IMG/VR virus record: IMGVR_UViG_2671180758_000004
From: a virus
Taxonomy: Duplodnaviria > Heunggongvirae > Uroviricota > Caudoviricetes
Reading direction: 5' to 3' (one strand)
Length of the DNA stretch: 5,835 nucleotides
Positions 1-5,835 of this stretch are shown in pieces. A model generated the notes under the pieces. The model was not told the DNA's origin. It was given only the letters and a program-made list of their open reading frames with translations, and made no database searches. The position numbers and the translations under genes were made by a program. Numbering within the stretch: the stretch's first letter is position 1; each line of letters opens with the position of its first letter.

Positions 1-52
1 GGCGGCAGAGCAGTCACGGAGTAAAACTGATACCGCCAAACGTCACCAGAAA
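1..52 (-). ncRNA. dicF: DicF antisense sRNA, copy 1 (3' terminator U-tract lies beyond the left window edge)
   Basis: Minus-strand reading of 52..1 gives UUUCUGGUGACGUUUGGCGGUAUCAGUUUUACUCCGUGACUGCUCUGCCGCC, which I recognise from memory as DicF. It sits downstream of the ydfC-like gene as in the Qin dicB operon and is identical to copy 2 at 1633..1684. Confidence 0.75.
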
Positions 53-375
53 ATTGATAACAGAGGGCGTTGCAGCGGGGTTGTCACTTAAGCGTATGGT
101 CAACCTGACAACCCGGTGTCCTCAACGGGGGAAGGAATAACCCCGCCATACTTACCGCCGCGCCATTTCGCGGATTGCCACAACCGGAAGCGCACGGTCG
201 ACGAAAATTTAACGACAGGCTATCTATGAACCAGCTACCTCGCCGTGCGCTTTCGCGTTATGGTCTGACTTTTCATGGAAATATCCTTTCAGTAAACTGT
301 CAATGCCGGATGCTCACCCGTGTCCGGCGCACGCACTCCACCTCACCCGTGGAGAACTCCTTAATTACTAACCTT
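1..375. repeat. Direct repeat A1: DicF plus its upstream precursor/leader region (copy of 1633..2007)
   Basis: Positions 1..365 match 1633..1997 with only 2 mismatches (276 t vs 1908 g; 303 a vs 1935 g). Similarity decays over the next ~10 bp. The left boundary is not visible because the window starts inside the element. Confidence 0.9.
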
Positions 376-771: not shown

Positions 772-1008
772 TCACTCACCTGAGTTTCTTTCCAGCCAGC
801 GACGGGCACCATTTTCGGTTTTAAACGTTTTGCTTTTGGTATACGTCATCGCGGTGAACGTACCGTCCTGGTTGGGAAACACGCCGTACACCAGAGATTC
901 GTTGTTGCCAAGATCGATAGTATCCATGTTGACCTCATTTCCCCTTAACGCCGGGGTAGCGGAACAAAAACCTGCTGCATAGTTATTAAAGTTGAACCCT
1001 GCCGTCAT
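772..1008 (-). CDS. ydfA: YdfA/YdaF-family (DUF1391-like) small protein, copy 1; 78 aa from ATG 1008, or 51 aa if translation starts at the internal ATG 927
   Basis: ORF conserved in two copies (see 2605..2838). The internal Met at 927..925 has a GAGG RBS 5 nt upstream and gives the 51-aa size I recall for ydfA/ydaF. The long form starts 9 nt downstream of a GAGG. Confidence 0.7.
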   Translation of the reverse strand: MTAGFNFNNYAAGFCSATPALRGNEVNMDTIDLGNNESLVYGVFPNQDGTFTAMTYTKSKTFKTENGARRWLERNSGE

Positions 1009-1063
1009 GTTCTTACGCCTCGGGCTGGCTACTTAACCCCTGACCACTGCCTGGTAACTCGAA
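796..1063. repeat. Direct repeat B1: ydfA-like gene plus 55-bp 5' leader (copy of 2626..2893)
   Basis: 930..1063 is 100% identical to 2760..2893 (134 bp), while 796..929 differs from 2626..2759 at 13 positions (~90%). Confidence 0.9.
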
Positions 1064-1080
1064 TTTATTACGGAACTGTT

Positions 1081-1272
1081 TTAAAGACCTGCCGGGATTT
1101 CGTTATTATCCTGGTGAATAACTTTATCGACCGGGTAACAGTTACCGGGAATTTTCTGTTCGGTTGCTGCAGTCACACACTCCTGCATTGTCCTGTGAAC
1201 ACTGACTGCAATATCAACTGGCTCTCCGGAAACAAGAAAAACTGTCAGAACAAGTGCAAATGCTGTATTCAT
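1081..1272 (-). CDS. ydfD: YdfD-like small lysis protein (63 aa) with N-terminal hydrophobic segment (MNTAFALVLTVFLVSG...)
   Basis: 63-aa ORF starting at ATG 1272..1270, which overlaps the dicB stop as ATGA (translational coupling). N-terminal hydrophobic helix. Size and position after dicB match ydfD. The longer 81-aa track ORF (to 1326) would overlap dicB and is less likely. Confidence 0.7.
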   Translation of the reverse strand: MNTAFALVLTVFLVSGEPVDIAVSVHRTMQECVTAATEQKIPGNCYPVDKVIHQDNNEIPAGL

Positions 1273-1457
1273 TGCCAGCATCCTTTTTGTATCGGACGTA
1301 AACGGGCCAGCATTGAAAGAATGCATATTTTATTTAATAGCTCCCGTTCGTGTTTTCTCTTGTTAATGGCATCTTCAGTAAATACAGGGTTACTGATAGT
1401 GACACCAATTTCAAAACAACCTTCAGACGTATTAACGTTTGGTAATAACGTTTCCAT
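1269..1457 (-). CDS. dicB: DicB cell-division inhibitor (62 aa)
   Basis: Translation METLLPNVNTSEGCFEIGVTISNPVFTEDAINKRKHERELLNKICILSMLARLRPIQKGCWQ closely matches my recollection of E. coli DicB. GAGGA RBS 7 nt upstream of ATG 1457..1455. The 97-aa track ORF is an upstream in-frame extension with no RBS. Confidence 0.9.
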   Translation of the reverse strand: METLLPNVNTSEGCFEIGVTISNPVFTEDAINKRKHERELLNKICILSMLARLRPIQKGCWQ

Positions 1458-1626
1458 TATCGCGTCCTCAACAATGAATTTTGTGATGTGGTGCCTGGTG
1501 CCTCCAGGTGACGTTAACCAGTTAACAATTAACGCCGGATACAGAGAATCCACCCATAACACTGTTTTTGGTTTTAACTGTTCCGCGTGCGCTCAGCCGC
1601 ATTCACCGCATCACAAAATTCACTTT

Positions 1627-1684
1627 AAAAACGGCGGCAGAGCAGTCACGGAGTAAAACTGATACCGCCAAACGTCACCAGAAA
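1627..1684 (-). ncRNA. dicF: DicF antisense sRNA, copy 2, complete with intrinsic terminator (GC-rich hairpin then U-tract = complement of 1627..1631)
   Basis: Minus strand 1684..1627 reads UUUCUGGUGACGUUUGGCGGUAUCAGUUUUACUCCGUGACUGCUCUGCCGCCGUUUUU. It lies between a ~320-bp leader and dicB, as expected for DicF. The exact 5' end (RNase E processed in the known system) is approximate. Confidence 0.8.
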
Positions 1685-2007
1685 ATTGATAACAGAGGGC
1701 GTTGCAGCGGGGTTGTCACTTAAGCGTATGGTCAACCTGACAACCCGGTGTCCTCAACGGGGGAAGGAATAACCCCGCCATACTTACCGCCGCGCCATTT
1801 CGCGGATTGCCACAACCGGAAGCGCACGGTCGACGAAAATTTAACGACAGGCTATCTATGAACCAGCTACCTCGCCGTGCGCTTTCGCGTTATGGTCTGA
1901 CTTTTCAGGGAAATATCCTTTCAGTAAACTGTCAGTGCCGGATGCTCACCCGTGTCCGGCGCACGCACTCCACCTCACCCGTGGAGAACTCCTTAATCAC
2001 CAACCCT
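1633..2007. repeat. Direct repeat A2: DicF plus upstream precursor/leader region (copy of 1..375)
   Basis: See A1. The right end of A2 abuts the RBS of the plus-strand 91-aa gene instead of a ydfC 3' end. Confidence 0.9.
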
Positions 2008-2019
2008 CAGGAGGGTGAA

Positions 2020-2295
2020 ATGTCGACTGAAAATGATGAAATCATTAACTCCCTGATACGCCAGATTAATAATTTTGATAAAGCATTGCAACATGCTGCG
2101 GCGCGTAGTGATATAACTCTTTTAGCAATTTCATTTCTTGCATCTGTTATGGATAAAAATGAAGTCGTACGACAGAGTCTTGTTGATTATATCGACTCGC
2201 TTCAACCCGGCACTTTCAATCATGAGAGCTTCAATCATGAGAAAGAGCATGTTAAGTCTGTAATTAATTCTCTTATTTTGAATCAAAAGAATTAA
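2020..2295 (+). CDS. Hypothetical acidic small protein (91 aa), AT-rich cargo gene; function unknown
   Basis: ATG at 2020 preceded by a strong RBS, AGGAGG at 2009..2014 with 5-nt spacing. ORF ends TAA at 2293..2295 and is followed by an intrinsic terminator at 2323..2350. Local GC content is visibly lower than in flanking repeats. One short hydrophobic stretch (ITLLAISFLASVM), no clear transmembrane pair. Confidence 0.7.
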   Translation: MSTENDEIINSLIRQINNFDKALQHAAARSDITLLAISFLASVMDKNEVVRQSLVDYIDSLQPGTFNHESFNHEKEHVKSVINSLILNQKN

Positions 2296-2593
2296 TGCTT
2301 TTTGTTGCAAAGTAATTTTCAAGGGGTTCTATTCGAATCCCTTTCTTTTTCATTAACAAGCCAAACCCCTTATCAATGATGTCCATTAGATCCAGGAAGT
2401 ATTTTTCATGTAAATCCTGGTTATCAGAGAGCTGCTTCTCTTCGTACAGCCCGATAAAGGCTCGGCGTACGTTACCGGATATATTGTCGATGGTTTCTTT
2501 TTCTACGGTACTCAGGTCAAGAGTCGCCAGTTGAGAGCGAACCACATTCGATGCCATTTCCTGGAATGGTACTGGTAAATCTTTAAATTCCAT
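2273..2593 (-). CDS. Hypothetical acidic protein (106 aa from ATG 2593; 110 aa if started at ATG 2605 overlapping the ydfA-like stop as TGATG); function unknown
   Basis: Long ORF in AT-rich DNA immediately downstream of ydfA-like copy 2. A GAGG RBS lies 6 nt before ATG 2593. Its 3' end overlaps the convergent 91-aa gene by 23 bp. No family recognised by eye. Confidence 0.6.
   Translation of the reverse strand: MEFKDLPVPFQEMASNVVRSQLATLDLSTVEKETIDNISGNVRRAFIGLYEEKQLSDNQDLHEKYFLDLMDIIDKGFGLLMKKKGIRIEPLENYFATKSINSFDSK
2323..2350 (+). terminator. Rho-independent terminator for the plus-strand 91-aa gene
   Basis: Stem GGGGTTC (2323..2329) pairs with GAATCCC (2335..2341) as 7 bp including one G-U pair, with a 5-nt loop, followed by TTTCTTTTT (2342..2350). 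On the minus strand the hairpin would be followed by A's, so it is unidirectional. Confidence 0.6.
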
Positions 2594-2604
2594 CGTCAAC
2601 CTCA

Positions 2605-2838
2605 TCAGTCAGTGTTTCTGGTTAACCAGCGACGCGCGCCAGCTTCAGTTTTAAACGTTTTGCTTCTGGTATATGTCATCGCGGTAAACGTGCCGTCCTG
2701 GTTGGGAAACACGCCGCATACCAGAGATTCGTTGTTGCCAAGCTCGATAGTATCCATGCTGACCTCATTTCCCCTTAACGCCGGGGTAGCGGAACAAAAA
2801 CCTGCTGCATAGTTATTAAAGTTGAACCCTGCCGTCAT
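2605..2838 (-). CDS. ydfA: YdfA/YdaF-family (DUF1391-like) small protein, copy 2; 77 aa from ATG 2838, or 50 aa from internal ATG 2757
   Basis: Paralogue of 772..1008 with 6 amino-acid differences plus a divergent C-terminus. First gene downstream of the predicted early-left promoter, the position ydfA occupies relative to dicA in Qin. Confidence 0.7.
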   Translation of the reverse strand: MTAGFNFNNYAAGFCSATPALRGNEVSMDTIELGNNESLVCGVFPNQDGTFTAMTYTRSKTFKTEAGARRWLTRNTD

Positions 2839-2893
2839 GTTCTTACGCCTCGGGCTGGCTACTTAACCCCTGACCACTGCCTGGTAACTCGAA
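2626..2893. repeat. Direct repeat B2: ydfA-like gene plus 55-bp leader (copy of 796..1063)
   Basis: See B1. Confidence 0.9.
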
Positions 2894-2935
2894 GTATTGC
2901 CCTGCATTCTGTGGGGTGGGGTGGGTGGCAGGTAT

Positions 2936-2980
2936 ATAATGTACTTTGCGTTCATTGTTGTAAAGTACTTTTAGTACATT
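2936..2980 (-). promoter_or_regulatory. Predicted early-left (dicB-operon type) promoter with flanking GTAC-centred operator half-sites
   Basis: On the minus strand: -35 TTTACA (2964..2959), 17-bp spacer, -10 CATTAT (2941..2936). AATGTACT at 2938..2945 overlaps the -10, its inverted copy AGTACATT is at 2973..2980, and the palindrome AAAGTACTTT is at 2962..2971. Sequence-only prediction. Confidence 0.45.
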
Positions 2981-3054
2981 CTGTGTGTAAAAAAATGAGA
3001 TGGGATAAAGTGAAGCACAAACCCGGAGGAAGGCGCTACCGGATTTATGCTGGT

Positions 3055-3474
3055 TTAAGAGGCTTTTTGTTTTTTCTTTCGTGCTAACTCTTCGTAAATT
3101 GCATTGTACTTCTGTTTTTTCTCTTCAAGAGTTTTTAAAAGTTCATCTGTCTCACTGTCAGGGAGCTCGTCCAGAAGGTCAATGATGATTTTTTGTCTTG
3201 GATTTAACTCCTGATAGAAACGTACCTGTCCACTTTCTTCTGTATCCTCTCCCAAAAGATAGGTTGGTGTTGTTCCTATTAGTGTTGCTAATTCCCTTAA
3301 TTTCTCCCGGCGAGGAATTGTTTCGCCATTAAACCATTTGCTAACCGCTTTTGGTGTTAATTTCATTCGACGGGCAATTTCTGCCTGCCTTCCATGTTGT
3401 TCATAACCAGCATTTTCACAGGCTAGCGCAAGCCTACTGGCGAACTCTTTACGCGCTTTATCTTCATGAACCAT
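3055..3474 (-). CDS. Prophage repressor, XRE-family HTH (RacR/DicA-like, 139 aa), no S24 peptidase domain apparent
   Basis: N-terminal HTH-like segment (QAEIARRMKLTPKAVSKWFNGETIP), charged C-terminal helix, AT-rich codon usage. Divergent from a Cro-like gene and upstream of a dicB-type operon. Weak RBS, consistent with repressor genes. Confidence 0.85.
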   Translation of the reverse strand: MVHEDKARKEFASRLALACENAGYEQHGRQAEIARRMKLTPKAVSKWFNGETIPRREKLRELATLIGTTPTYLLGEDTEESGQVRFYQELNPRQKIIIDLLDELPDSETDELLKTLEEKKQKYNAIYEELARKKKQKAS

Positions 3475-3494
3475 AAGTTCAATGATATTCGCTC

Positions 3495-3529
3495 TTGAAT
3501 GTACTGTCAGTTCTGTTATAGCATGTACT
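3495..3529 (+). promoter_or_regulatory. Predicted rightward promoter for the Cro-like gene with operator-like AATGTACT / ATGTACT repeats
   Basis: -35 TTGAAT (3495..3500), 16-bp spacer, -10 TATAGC (3517..3522). AATGTACT at 3498..3505 and ATGTACT at 3523..3529 share the motif found at the leftward promoter. A small palindrome TCACAtTGTGA lies at 3536..3546. Confidence 0.45.
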
Positions 3530-3553
3530 CAAAGTTCACATTGTGAGGGTGAT

Positions 3554-3808
3554 ATGAACCAGAAAACACTTGAAGATGTAATCAAAACTGTTCGCGTTGC
3601 TGTTGTGGCCGACGTTTGTGGTGTCAGCCAAAGAGCAATCTATAAATGGATGGATAACGGAAAATTGCCTCGCACAGAATATACCGGCGAAACAAATTAC
3701 GCTGAAAAAATCGCTCTTGCATCAAACGGATTATTTTCTGCCGATGCAATTTTAACTATTGGCAGGAATAAAACTACTACGAAAAAGCTGATGGGAGTTG
3801 ATTCATGA
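3554..3808 (+). CDS. ydaS: Cro-like HTH protein (YdaS-like, 84 aa)
   Basis: ATG 3554 with GAGGG RBS at 3545..3549. HTH-like segment VADVCGVSQRAIYKWMDNG. Divergent from the repressor. Its stop overlaps the next start as ATGA. The 108-aa track ORF from 3482 would begin inside the repressor start region without an RBS. Confidence 0.75.
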   Translation: MNQKTLEDVIKTVRVAVVADVCGVSQRAIYKWMDNGKLPRTEYTGETNYAEKIALASNGLFSADAILTIGRNKTTTKKLMGVDS

Positions 3809-4230
3809 AAATCAAGCATGAACACATCCGCATGGCGATGAATGCCTGGGCGCATCCGGACGGCGAAAAAGTACCGGCTGCGAAAATTACCAAAGCATAT
3901 TTCGAGCTGGGAATGACGTTCCCGGAACTGTATGACGACAGCCATCCGGAAGCCCTGGCTCGCAATACTCAGAAAATTTTCCGCTGGGTGGAGAAAGACA
4001 CCCCTGATGCGGTTAAAAAAATTCAGGCGTTGTTACCAGCTATCGAAAAAGCAATGCCACCTCTGCTGGTGGCCCGAATGCGCAGTCATAGCTCAGCCTA
4101 TTTTCGGGAACTAGTGGAGACGCGGGAACGACTGGTGAGAGACGCTGATGATTTTGTCGCAGTGGCGATCGCTGGTTTCAACCAGATGAATCGTGGTGGC
4201 CCTGCAGGAAATATTGTGGCTGTGCATTGA
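3805..4230 (+). CDS. ydaT: YdaT-like protein (141 aa), CII-position gene of the Rac-type module
   Basis: ATG 3805 overlaps the ydaS-like stop (ATGA). Size and position match ydaT as I recall it. Sequence-level identity to K-12 YdaT is from memory and unverified. Confidence 0.7.
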   Translation: MKIKHEHIRMAMNAWAHPDGEKVPAAKITKAYFELGMTFPELYDDSHPEALARNTQKIFRWVEKDTPDAVKKIQALLPAIEKAMPPLLVARMRSHSSAYFRELVETRERLVRDADDFVAVAIAGFNQMNRGGPAGNIVAVH

Positions 4231-4301
4231 CTCGCAATATTCATACCGGATCACTTCCGGCAATTTGTGAGTAAAAAGATTCGGTATCAAAAGAGGTGAG
4301 T

Positions 4302-5372
4302 ATGGCTAACGCCTGGCTCAGATTATGGCATGACATGCCAAATGACCCTAAGTGGCGAACAATTGCCAGGGTGTCAGGGCAGCCAATTGCAACAGTGATG
4401 GCAGTGTATATCCACCTCCTGGTGAGCGCGTCACGAAATGTCACGCGAGGTCACATTGATGTCACGACAGAAGATTTGGCAAGTGCGCTCGACGTGACAG
4501 AAGAGGTAATTGATTCAATTTTGCAGACGATGCAGGGGCGGGTACTTGATGGTGATTTAATCACTGGATGGGAAAAACGCCAGGTGCTTAAAGAGGACAA
4601 CGGCAATATTTCGCAAACCGCAAAATCTCCTGCAGAGCGCAAGAGGGCGCAGCGAGAGAGGGAAAGAAAGCGGGAACAAAATGGCGATTGTCACGGCGCG
4701 TCACGAAATGTCACGCACATGTCACGACGAGTCACGACAGATAAAGATACAGATAAAGATACAGATCAAGAAGATCAAAACACTATGGTCCATGGCGTAA
4801 AAAACGCCACGAACCAGGCAGGGGATGTTCAGACCGTCAATCCTGGTCAGCCAGCAGGCACGACACCGGAAGCCGATTCAGCGTATGCGCTGAAAGCCGA
4901 TTCGGGCGCTGTGCAGCAGGTGATGACCGCAAGGCCGGAGCAATCACACCAACTGCAGCAGCCCGAAGCCGATTCCGCCATTCAGCGGGAAGCCGATCGG
5001 GTAGTCCCGGAAAACACCGGTCAGTCTGTGGGACGAGTGGATTATCCGGATGTGTTCGAACAGGTCTGGCGGGAGTACCCGTTGCGTGCCGGAGCAAACC
5101 CGAAGAAATCCGCTTTCAGTGCCTGGAAGGCCAGATTACGCGAGGGGGTGCCACCAGAGGCCATGCTGGATGGCGTGAGGCGTTACGCAAGATACTTGGC
5201 GGCTACCGGGAAAGCGGGAACGGAATTTGTTCAGCGAGCGACGACGTTTTTTGGACCGGACCGGAATTTTGAGAACCCCTGGTTTCTCCCGGTAAGCGGC
5301 ACGAACAACCAGCGTTGTGTGAATCATATTACTGAACCGGATAACGAAATTCCGCCGGGCTTCAGGGGGTAA
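4302..5372 (+). CDS. ydaU: YdaU-like phage replication initiator (lambda O-like role), 356 aa, with a low-complexity central linker
   Basis: ATG 4302 with AAGAGG RBS (4291..4296). Two iteron arrays and an AT-rich tract lie inside the coding sequence, as for ori-lambda inside gene O. Central region is charged and repetitive (ERKRAQRERERKRE, DKDTDKDTD, PEADSA repeats). Confidence 0.8.
   Translation: MANAWLRLWHDMPNDPKWRTIARVSGQPIATVMAVYIHLLVSASRNVTRGHIDVTTEDLASALDVTEEVIDSILQTMQGRVLDGDLITGWEKRQVLKEDNGNISQTAKSPAERKRAQRERERKREQNGDCHGASRNVTHMSRRVTTDKDTDKDTDQEDQNTMVHGVKNATNQAGDVQTVNPGQPAGTTPEADSAYALKADSGAVQQVMTARPEQSHQLQQPEADSAIQREADRVVPENTGQSVGRVDYPDVFEQVWREYPLRAGANPKKSAFSAWKARLREGVPPEAMLDGVRRYARYLAATGKAGTEFVQRATTFFGPDRNFENPWFLPVSGTNNQRCVNHITEPDNEIPPGFRG
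4426..4466 (+). repeat. Iteron array 1: four GTCAC(G/A) repeats in helical phase (4430, 4440, 4450, 4461), plus an inverted copy at 4493..4498
   Basis: Direct repeats spaced 10-11 bp. The 21-mer GCGCGTCACGAAATGTCACGC (4426..4446) is repeated exactly at 4696..4716. Confidence 0.8.
4690..4790 (+). other. Putative prophage origin of replication: iteron array 2 (five GTCACG repeats at 4690, 4700, 4710, 4721, 4731) followed by an AT-rich tract with tandem GATAAAGATACA x2 and two GATC sites
   Basis: Perfect 10/10/11/10-bp phasing of five identical hexamers. Adjacent AT-rich tract with GATAAAGATACA at 4740..4751 and 4752..4763 and GATC at 4764..4767 and 4773..4776. Architecture parallels ori-lambda inside the initiator gene. 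Confidence 0.7.
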
Positions 5373-5412
5373 GTGTTAATTTCTGGTCATGAGGTAATTT
5401 TCAGGAGGGCTT

Positions 5413-5835
5413 GTGGCAAAAGTTTTTACACAAGAAGAGCGGGAAAAAATTAAAGGGCTGATCGTGGAATTCGTACGCCTTAACGGACGAGGCACGATTC
5501 GGCAGTTATCGGATGAAATTGGTGTCAGTCATGCGTCTGTCGGTCGTTTATGCATGGAGCTGGCCGCCAGTGGTGATGTTTACAATTCCGGTTACGGAGT
5601 ATTCCCGTCTGAGCAGGCGCGCAAGGACTGGCAAAACGCCCGCAAAAAACTCTCAAGGGCAAAGCTGAAGAAACCATCTGTGGTTGATCCGGACCTTATC
5701 TGGCTATTACCAGACGGCGAAATACGCCGCTACGACAGGCGCCTAAACATAATCTGTCGCGAGTGCCGGAAGAGCGAAGCTATGCAGCGTGTACTGGCAT
5801 TTTATCAAGGAAATGTTAGGTATTTTAGACGTTAC
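5413..5835 (+). CDS. Hypothetical protein with putative winged-helix/HTH segment, 5' portion only (ORF runs off the right edge); occupies the position after the initiator gene
   Basis: Open frame from GTG 5413 to the window end (141 codons, no stop). AGGAGG at 5403..5408, 4 nt upstream. HTH-like segment IRQLSDEIGVSHASVGRLCMELAASGDV. No Walker A motif in the visible part, so not obviously DnaC-like. Confidence 0.55.
   Translation, partial: MAKVFTQEEREKIKGLIVEFVRLNGRGTIRQLSDEIGVSHASVGRLCMELAASGDVYNSGYGVFPSEQARKDWQNARKKLSRAKLKKPSVVDPDLIWLLPDGEIRRYDRRLNIICRECRKSEAMQRVLAFYQGNVRYFRRY

Follow-up and report, generated by a model that had tools for sequence, protein, structure and literature searches.

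The window, by which we mean the whole stretch of 5,835 nucleotides analyzed here, is the entire draft record CYDB01000073.1 (assembly GCA_001283425.1), and the sole difference between the two lies at base 1063. On its minus strand, a repressor gene, a promoter-like site and a DUF1391 gene (ydfA copy 2) are followed by an ORF of 106–110 aa (orf106), DicF, dicB and ydfD, which ends at 1081; a plus-strand ORF of 145 aa with its own terminator-like hairpin sits between orf106 and DicF. Beyond ydfD, as assembled, the minus strand continues with a second leader, ydfA copy 1, ydfB, ydfC and a second DicF. The window also encodes a replisome-organizer protein. The features to which the text refers are as follows:

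3474..3055, minus strand: HTH repressor (open reading frame and Pfam annotation)
2936..2964, minus strand: promoter-like site of the early-left operon (−35 TTTACA, 17-nt spacer, −10 CATTAT)
2605..2757, minus strand: ydfA copy 2, canonical 50-aa DUF1391 ORF (translation, Pfam)
1683..1632, minus strand: DicF (Rfam RF00039, 72.5 bits; gathering score 48)
1063..1063, no strand: scaffold join, N in CYDB01000073.1 and A in the window
772..927, minus strand: ydfA copy 1, canonical 51-aa DUF1391 ORF (translation, Pfam), identical to the protein query used
1..373, minus strand: DicF copy 1 with its upstream block, repeated at 1633–2005 with 4 mismatches
51..1, minus strand: DicF, copy 1 (Rfam RF00039, 69.6 bits; gathering score 48)

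The initial annotation placed copy 1 in mid-operon after ydfD. That order rests solely on the N at base 1063, and it does not hold. In a sister record, CYAR01000066.1 (L306), which is 99.7–99.98% identical to the window over the common parts, the only N sits at the same leader base, after ...CTGGTAACTCGA, and is followed by the sequence of window position 1807 onward (the repeat upstream of DicF) with no ydfD flank. The junction between ydfD and the leader is spanned by none of 5,426 complete E. coli genomes, in which the ydfD homology begins exactly at 1063, and it is also without a match in IMG/VR or in the JGI metagenomes; the two copies were not found contiguous on one molecule in the order shown. 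The complete E. coli genomes with the same repressor contain a single module only, in the order repressor, ydfA, ydfB, ydfC, optional ORFs, dicF, dicB, ydfD and exonuclease. One nucleotide with two different partners, and an N at both joins, is the picture given by abutted contig ends and not by two biological events; we conclude that 1–1062 (contig A) and 1064–5835 (contig B) are separate contigs that were joined in scaffolding. The right edge of the repeat is a contig end, since base 1063 is N in the public record. Furthermore, L056, which matches copy 1 exactly in its 133-nt leader and throughout ydfA, carries C at the position equivalent to base 1063, where copy 2 carries T; the end of contig A thus coincides with the first difference between the two leaders, a pattern to be expected where a repeat has been collapsed. 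Repeat-induced scaffolding errors in short-read drafts are marked, as here, by a lone N bordering an exact repeat, by disagreement between sister assemblies and by a junction seen nowhere else. We found no difference between this case and an ordinary error of that kind, and the join appears ordinary. A microhomology at the junction (GTAATAAAT vs GCAATACTT, 6 of 9 bases) was considered as a trace of illegitimate recombination, a reading that was dropped when the N was found. A second repeat, the DicF block (1–373 vs 1633–2005), likewise terminates where a contig ends.

At an offset of 1830 bases, the pairwise comparison of the two copies gives no mismatch between 930–1063 and 2760–2893 and 13 mismatches between 796–929 and 2626–2759, which reproduces the counts of the initial annotation, with five more mismatches in 784–795; the homology has sharp limits at 1063/2893 and at approximately 784/2614. 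The number of determined identical bases is 133, since the partner base 1063 is N in the public record. According to Fisher's test, the difference between 0/134 and 13/134 has P = 1.8e-4, and when 18 mismatches are placed at random over 279 sites, a mismatch-free run of at least 133 has P = 9e-5. The identity step is therefore non-random, with P of about 1e-4. The start codon of the canonical 51-aa ORF lies at 927..925 in copy 1 and at 2757..2755 in copy 2. Mismatch 929/2759 therefore belongs to the untranslated leader (position −2), and the whole of the perfect block precedes the canonical ORF. Codons 1–44 differ by four amino-acid changes (D5E, Y14C, K31R and N39A), rather than the six initially reported for the canonical part, and by seven synonymous changes, all of them at third positions. 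Were the leader neutral and of the same age as the coding sequence, it should have accumulated some tens of differences.

To place this step in context, we used 175 ydfA loci from IMG/VR and GTDB genomes that were chosen by protein alone. Their leader mismatches to the window are bimodal (0–2 in 66 loci and at least 26 in the remaining loci), and 49 of the 175 natural loci carry the identical 134-nt leader. The adjoining 134 nt of coding sequence differs from either copy at 0–16 positions, in many combinations with the leaders. Among 49 distinct haplotypes with the same leader, the nucleotide diversity is 0.0047 in the leader (134 nt), 0.092 in the ORF, 0.156 at third positions and 0.128 in the 33 nt upstream of the leader. 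The class is defined by leader similarity, which makes the low leader diversity partly circular, and the independent signal is the absence of loci with 3–25 mismatches. The other leaders found at ydfA loci comprise a subtype with indels, a Rac type and a K-12 Qin type that is unrelated upstream of about −36. The last 23 nt before the ydfA start codon have at most one mismatch in 120 of 126 unique loci, and this translation-initiation region is kept even at loci with a different leader (K-12 Qin type). The entire copy-1 haplotype, that is, the 133-nt leader and the whole coding sequence, is present in L056, and the entire copy-2 haplotype is present in L103, L105, L107 and L108. The wide alignment of ydfA loci that had been proposed as a check thus upholds the step, which persists across 49 haplotypes (0.0047 vs 0.156 at third positions), and removes the idea that it is private to this genome.

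Because leader types and ydfA alleles occur in many combinations and the last 23 nt are common to nearly all loci, we consider the two to be reshuffled among prophages, and the boundary between leader and coding sequence is a population-level mosaic. The exchange probably goes through the conserved ribosome-binding region. The identity step is thus ordinary lambdoid mosaicism, a property of the family and not an event in the window's genome. In HK97 and HK022, abrupt changes from near identity to divergence at the gene boundaries of lambdoid phages were reportedly described by Juhala and colleagues in 2000. The present case resembles such boundaries in that the step lies within 2 nt of a start codon, one leader is found with many ydfA alleles and these alleles also with other leaders, and a short conserved ribosome-binding stretch stands at the boundary. 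It differs in that the conserved side, with its hairpin and core, is held by RNA-structure constraint as well as by recent common descent.

Two other explanations of the step refer to the window itself. The initial annotation suggested a recent gene conversion or recombination within the genome, which copied the leader between the ydfA paralogues with a tract end at about 929/2759. The non-random step, with 133 identical bases beside approximately 10% divergence, has the appearance of such a tract, and paralogous prophage modules of one genome can convert each other. However, both whole haplotypes exist unchanged as single loci elsewhere, the same leader accompanies many ydfA alleles, and the close tandem layout that would favor conversion is the scaffold join. 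A private tract is therefore unneeded, and we regard it as very improbable. An assembly artefact is only slightly more plausible and still clearly unlikely: the leader of contig A would have been assembled or gap-filled with reads that belong to the other copy, and would deviate from the real copy-1 leader. The block does end exactly at an N-marked contig end of a short-read draft, two sister assemblies join the same end to different sequences, and repeats below the insert size are often collapsed in short-read assemblies. Against this, L056 is another genome and has exactly these 133 bases before the exact copy-1 coding sequence, and the identical leader is frequent among the natural loci.

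The copy-2 side of the identical block consists, 5′ to 3′ on the minus strand, of the 3′ half of a hairpin (28 nt), an invariant core (36 nt), the body of an upstream ORF (approximately 45 nt) and the ydfA ribosome-binding region (approximately 25 nt). The upstream-ORF body is allele-specific and not conserved between leader types, and its identity here reflects a shared allele rather than constraint. The parts of the leader are as follows:

2760..2893, minus strand: copy-2 side of the identical block, wholly 5′ untranslated leader of ydfA copy 2 (0 mismatches)
930..1062, minus strand: copy-1 side of the identical block, 133 determined bases, ending at the end of contig A
2866..2922, minus strand: three-helix hairpin of 57 nt (A2 alignment columns 3–59; folds and covariation)
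2918–2922 with 2866–2870, minus strand: outer helix of the hairpin (folds, covariation)
2911–2915 with 2873–2877, minus strand: middle helix (folds, covariation)
2900–2906 with 2878–2884, minus strand: inner helix (folds, covariation)
2885..2899, minus strand: apical loop of 15 nt, CAAUACNNCGAGUUA, conserved; contig A (copy 1) ends inside it
2830..2865, minus strand: invariant single-stranded core of 36 nt, UAAGUAGCCAGCCYGAGGCNUANGAACAUGAMGGC
2848–2851 and 2836–2838, minus strand: GAGG and upstream-ORF AUG, parts of the core, whose copy-1 equivalent is 1000–1035
2763..2786, minus strand: ydfA translation-initiation region, with a small hairpin (CCCC 2783–2786 with GGGG 2771–2774) and the Shine-Dalgarno sequence GAGG (2763–2766)

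The hairpin loop encloses three further apical pairs, and 11 of the 15 positions of the apical loop are invariant in the A2 alignment (A27–C31 and G35–A40). Because contig A ends inside this loop (alignment column 32), the assembled copy 1 has the 3′ half of the hairpin but not the 5′ half. When sequences of eight types were folded one by one, almost all took the same architecture, with an outer helix of 4–5 pairs, a middle helix of 3–6, an inner helix of 6–7 and an apical loop of 15 nt. When IMG/VR was searched with the core TAAGTAGCCAGCCTGAGGC, at least 120 loci proved to carry strongly diverged versions. The core part TAAGTAGCCAGCCYGAGGC was the search pattern, and the evidence of conservation is independent only for the remaining core positions.

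The covariation of the hairpin was evaluated with two alignments. In an ungapped alignment that was anchored on the loop and the core, and was thus not fitted to the structure, 83.8% of the cells are paired, compared with 23–41% for slid partners; double changes occur in 15 of the 20 pairs, and none of 500 shuffles reaches the observed values. With the covariance model built from this alignment, 98 matches were obtained in 96 out of 100 sources searched, and the model scores 108.7 bits for copy 2 and 55.7 bits for the truncated copy 1. In the model-based alignment of 42 distinct sequences, 82.8% of the cells are paired and 17 of the 20 pairs have double changes (0/500 shuffles); across both alignments, slid partners pair in 23–47% of cells. 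RNAalifold on a plain MAFFT alignment recovered only nine pairs, because the stems are misaligned between types. The folding stability of the whole leader is not above that of shuffled sequence (z = +1.3), so stability alone would have missed the element, and the stability z-scores of the hairpins of the individual types are modest. The covariation analysis of the leader that had been suggested at the outset supports the structure.

The predicted transcription start should lie near 2929, which leaves approximately 7 nt up to the hairpin. All types examined have the element 200–270 nt downstream of a repressor-type gene (HTH or S24) or, at some loci, of a different ORF, and the genes downstream of it are early-left genes of the DUF1391, DUF1482, ydaG or N-like kind. 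Other first genes are likewise preceded by the 5′ part of the leader, namely ydaG in Rac-type prophages and a 118-aa ORF in phage vB_EcoS-640R1, and a 76%-identical version of this part occurs in phage pPE4. A full element, unannotated there, is present in the Rac prophage of E. coli K-12 between ydaG and racR (107 bits). The covariance model found no match in K-12 Qin (L083), lambda or HK022 (L183). The element is conserved regardless of the downstream gene. The evidence supports the view that the 134-nt identical block belongs to a conserved folded leader RNA of the early-left operons of many lambda-like prophages. We attribute the nucleotide-level conservation of the leader to the structured RNA that it specifies, with which the early-left transcript begins. 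Constraint on an RNA element, which the initial annotation had offered as its second reading of the step, is thus borne out by a covarying hairpin and an invariant core that are kept before unrelated first genes.

An in-frame ATG at 1008/2838, with GAGG 9 nt upstream, opens a long ORF that runs into ydfA, and the initial annotation described part of the identical block as the first 26 codons of this ORF. The block is better described as 5′ leader. Across loci, the ORF that begins at the conserved AUG encodes 4–121 aa; its frame is not the same in all leader subtypes, and in many cases it terminates short of ydfA (examples are MTAVVD*, MTAVVVK*, MKASDDS*, MTAGFNFNNYAAGFCSATRR* and MTAGTLCITAQQVF...). 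Pfam DUF1391 (PF07151; 96.8 and 96.1 bits, cut-off 27.3) matches residues 29–76 and 29–75 of the long ORFs, which correspond to the 51-aa part. Because its length and frame vary and DUF1391 covers residues 29–76 only, the long ORF is, judged from its sequence, an upstream ORF that runs in frame into ydfA by chance in this haplotype.

Two further readings concern what the conserved segment encodes. The first, a real N-terminal extension that would yield a YdfA isoform of 77/78 aa, draws on the in-frame ATG with its GAGG, on the annotation of the draft record, which calls the long ORF, and on the high conservation of the ORF start (GAGG, AUG and ACG GCN). However, the variable length and frame of the ORF, its frequent stop before ydfA and the restriction of DUF1391 to the 51-aa part argue against it, and RefSeq annotates the 51-aa form. 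Moreover, among the loci with the same leader, only 4 of the 81 sites of the extension vary, without the excess at third positions that a protein-coding sequence would show. We find such an isoform scarcely credible. It is somewhat less improbable, though still improbable, that the hairpin acts as DNA or from the opposite strand, as a protein-binding palindrome, a recombination site or an antisense RNA, rather than as sense leader RNA. Compensatory changes preserve an inverted repeat in DNA as they do in RNA, and wobble pairs do not favor the sense strand: the count of cells by strand of folding, outside the invariant pair, is 10 G.U vs 20 A.C. However, the element is always just 3′ of a promoter-like site, in the sense orientation of the operon, and the conserved Shine-Dalgarno sequence and AUG come after it. 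Neither the loop nor the core is symmetric, and the sequence of each is specific to one strand; no antisense promoter-like site was flagged there.

Considering all of these observations, our overall interpretation is that of a two-contig scaffold, a population-wide identity step and a conserved structured leader RNA for which we infer a cis-acting role, and we assign it a probability of approximately 0.75. Contigs A and B belong to two paralogous early-left modules of a short-read draft genome, abutted at a gap of one N, and the two modules most likely come from two lambdoid prophages. Contig B runs from the repressor through the promoter, leader, ydfA2, orf106, dicF and dicB to ydfD, and contig A from a cut leader through ydfA1, ydfB and ydfC to dicF; the abutment created the false order of ydfD, leader and ydfA. 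Both modules carry the same leader allele with different ydfA alleles. The leader may be a cis-acting element that is read by a conserved host machine, either RNA polymerase or the ribosome. The partner is probably a host machine because the phage genes downstream differ between types. Such a leader would ensure that the long left operon is expressed in spite of terminators within it, for example that of DicF. We believe that a leader that acts in cis through protection of the 5′ end and early ribosome loading on the upstream ORF is preferable to a put-like action. With this arrangement, early ribosome loading and a protective 5′ hairpin would prevent truncation of a long operon of small genes. 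Alternatively, the element may act on RNA polymerase in the manner of putL, so that genes beyond the DicF terminator would be reached without N. The RNA would then fold at the outset of PL transcription, as it emerges from RNA polymerase, and would enable the elongation complex, or the first ribosome coupled to that complex, to pass the DicF terminator and other stops to dicB, the recombination genes, xis and int. By analogy, the leader would do for N-less lambdoid prophages (Rac-like, DicF/DicB-carrying) what putL does for HK022, a proposal that we consider rather unlikely. The lack of similarity to put, the lack of a copy at PR and the R-type relatives, which carry the element together with boxA and an N-like gene, all speak against it.

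The dicBF and Rac left operons encode toxic inhibitors of cell division (DicB, DicF and KilR), and, to our knowledge, the control of their expression after release of the repressor is poorly understood. The conserved leader provides a handle on this control that can be tested in K-12. The study of an apparent duplication has yielded, as a by-product, a structured RNA with strong covariation support that opens the early-left transcript in many prophage contigs, K-12 Rac included, and the element also occurs in DicF/DicB-carrying prophages of pathogenic strains. The case carries a caution as well: the tandem "duplicated ydfA" is a product of scaffolding, and its identity step is the normal mosaic of lambdoid prophages.

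Among known systems, the dicBp leader belongs to an operon of the same type, the K-12 Qin dicBF operon, in which a repressor is likewise followed by ydfA-ydfB-ydfC-dicF-dicB-ydfD and the last ~36 nt before the ydfA start are common to both. However, the Qin leader is unrelated upstream of that point and has no hairpin or core, and a 2023 paper on the regulation of this operon describes no leader element (PMC10448788). Rfam 15 (cmscan, E ≤ 1) has no family at the window leader, its matches in the window being DicF twice and a sub-threshold STnc100 elsewhere, and no match at the element in seven loci with divergent versions. The leader RNA was not found in the literature searched, and a literal search of papers for its sequence gave no relevant match. 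Two known anti-sRNAs, AgvB and AsxR, were set aside because they are located 3′ of PR′ and not at the leader; the preprint on another candidate, the Pas sRNA, mentions neither ydfA nor dicA.

The lambda nutL site (boxA and boxB) is similarly a cis element of the same transcript leader, and in the R-type relatives the present element lies directly upstream of the boxA CGCTCTTTAAC and an N-like gene. However, the 15-nt loop of the window is unlike boxB, and lambda is without a match to the model. The boxA sequence YGCTCTTTAA is not found in the left leader of the window; matches with one mismatch occur only at 3490 (plus strand) and 4588 (minus strand), a number within chance. The left-operon ORFs of the window include no N-like protein, their Pfam matches being to DUF1391 only, and an N_peptide match (25.9 bits, below the cut-off) occurs only in the R-type relatives. 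A nut site with N was accordingly rejected for the window leader.

The put RNAs of HK022 consist of two adjacent stem-loops, approximately 70 nt in total, and bring about factor-independent antitermination through the zinc-binding domain of the β′ subunit. HK022 putL is a cis-acting RNA that renders RNA polymerase resistant to terminators (PMC9378689). The repressor and Cro of the window are 47% and 57% identical to their HK022 counterparts, and its promoter/operator region is 79% identical to HK022 PL (48/61), with the homology ending at the −10 element. Past that point, HK022 has putL and the window has the hairpin described here. Both elements start within a few bases of the PL start (in the window, the promoter-like site extends to 2936 and the hairpin follows from 2922), both are structured RNAs some 60–95 nt in length, and both belong to phages without an N gene beside the leader; the window operon, moreover, contains an internal terminator (DicF). 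Identity with put was rejected, since blastn (word size 7) against the HK022 immunity region yielded only chance matches of 7–10 bases and there was no match to the model. Unlike put, the window element is a single 57-nt hairpin of three helices with an unpaired conserved core rather than two stem-loops, the window has no second copy on the PR side, and some relatives also carry nutL and N. The loop and core motifs are absent from the plus strand of the window, and loci with two copies have both in the same orientation. From sequence comparison, we consider the element to be a putative cis-acting leader RNA of phage early operons that is apparently undescribed and falls outside put, nut and the families of Rfam 15.

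A complete leader element, scoring 107 bits against its covariance model, is present in the Rac prophage of E. coli K-12 (L304, 3519-3613, - strand). It corresponds to about positions 1,419,518-1,419,612 of NC_000913.3 and lies between ydaG and racR, where nothing is annotated, and this copy of the element offers a handy experimental system. The leader also carries a second short conserved block, GCGCAGYAGRU...GUUCCGC, which lies 3′ of the upstream ORF at about 2790-2808 of the window (- strand). It recurs in a number of leader types (W, Rac, P, Q and T, plus one S), each time 45-55 nt past the conserved AUG and irrespective of which gene comes first.

Two DicF sRNA genes, an opposite-strand ORF and a set of short repeats were located elsewhere in the window.

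Further features of the window
1-51, - strand: DicF sRNA gene, copy 1 (69.6 bits)
1632-1683, - strand: DicF sRNA gene (72.5 bits)
1858-2295, + strand: 145-aa ORF, inside the left operon in the opposite orientation
2321-2343, + strand: terminator-like hairpin belonging to the 145-aa ORF
4430-4738, + strand: iteron-like GTCACG repeats within the replisome-organizer gene

Upstream of each DicF gene is a block of approximately 320 nt that is nearly identical between the copies; across DicF and this block, 1-373 and 1633-2005 differ by 4 mismatches in 373 nt. DicF copy 1 is truncated at the contig end; therefore, the DicF repeat, which is the second one in the window, also coincides with an assembly boundary. 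Between dicF and dicB, the prophage sRNA family STnc100 gives a hit (1425-1634, - strand; 35.3 bits, E = 4.7e-5) that falls below the gathering score of 47.

The 145-aa ORF and the end of the 106-110-aa ORF overlap, and neither ORF has a match in Pfam. Together with its own terminator-like hairpin, the 145-aa ORF forms a moron-like arrangement. The GTCACG repeats look like a replication origin embedded in the O-like gene.

Four relatives (L213, L220, L227 and L262) each contain a pair of leader elements that point the same way and are separated by 1.7-2.7 kb.

Paired leader elements in L227
1428-1522, + strand: leader element
4112-4206, + strand: leader element

In the copies examined, those of L227 and L262, boxA CGCTCTTTAAC and an N-like ORF lie downstream of the element, and a second repressor/Cro pair lies between the two copies. 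The organization of these relatives is suggestive of a tandem, immunity-like layout.

In the window, the promoter PL and its operators (2934-3000, - strand) share 79% identity with those of phage HK022 (L183, 2319-2379), and the homology ends at the -10 hexamer, past which the sequence continues with putL in HK022 and with the new hairpin in the window. The window's repressor and Cro are 47% and 57% identical, respectively, to the HK022 proteins. Phage lambda (L309) yielded no match to the leader-element model. Its pL leader (630-683, - strand) reads ...ACCACCATGAAGGTGACGCTCTTAA, and a short ORF starts with ATG AAG G directly before boxA; this start resembles the GAACATGAAGGC of R-type leaders, in which the element lies directly upstream of boxA and an N-like gene, and we regard this as a likeness and nothing more.
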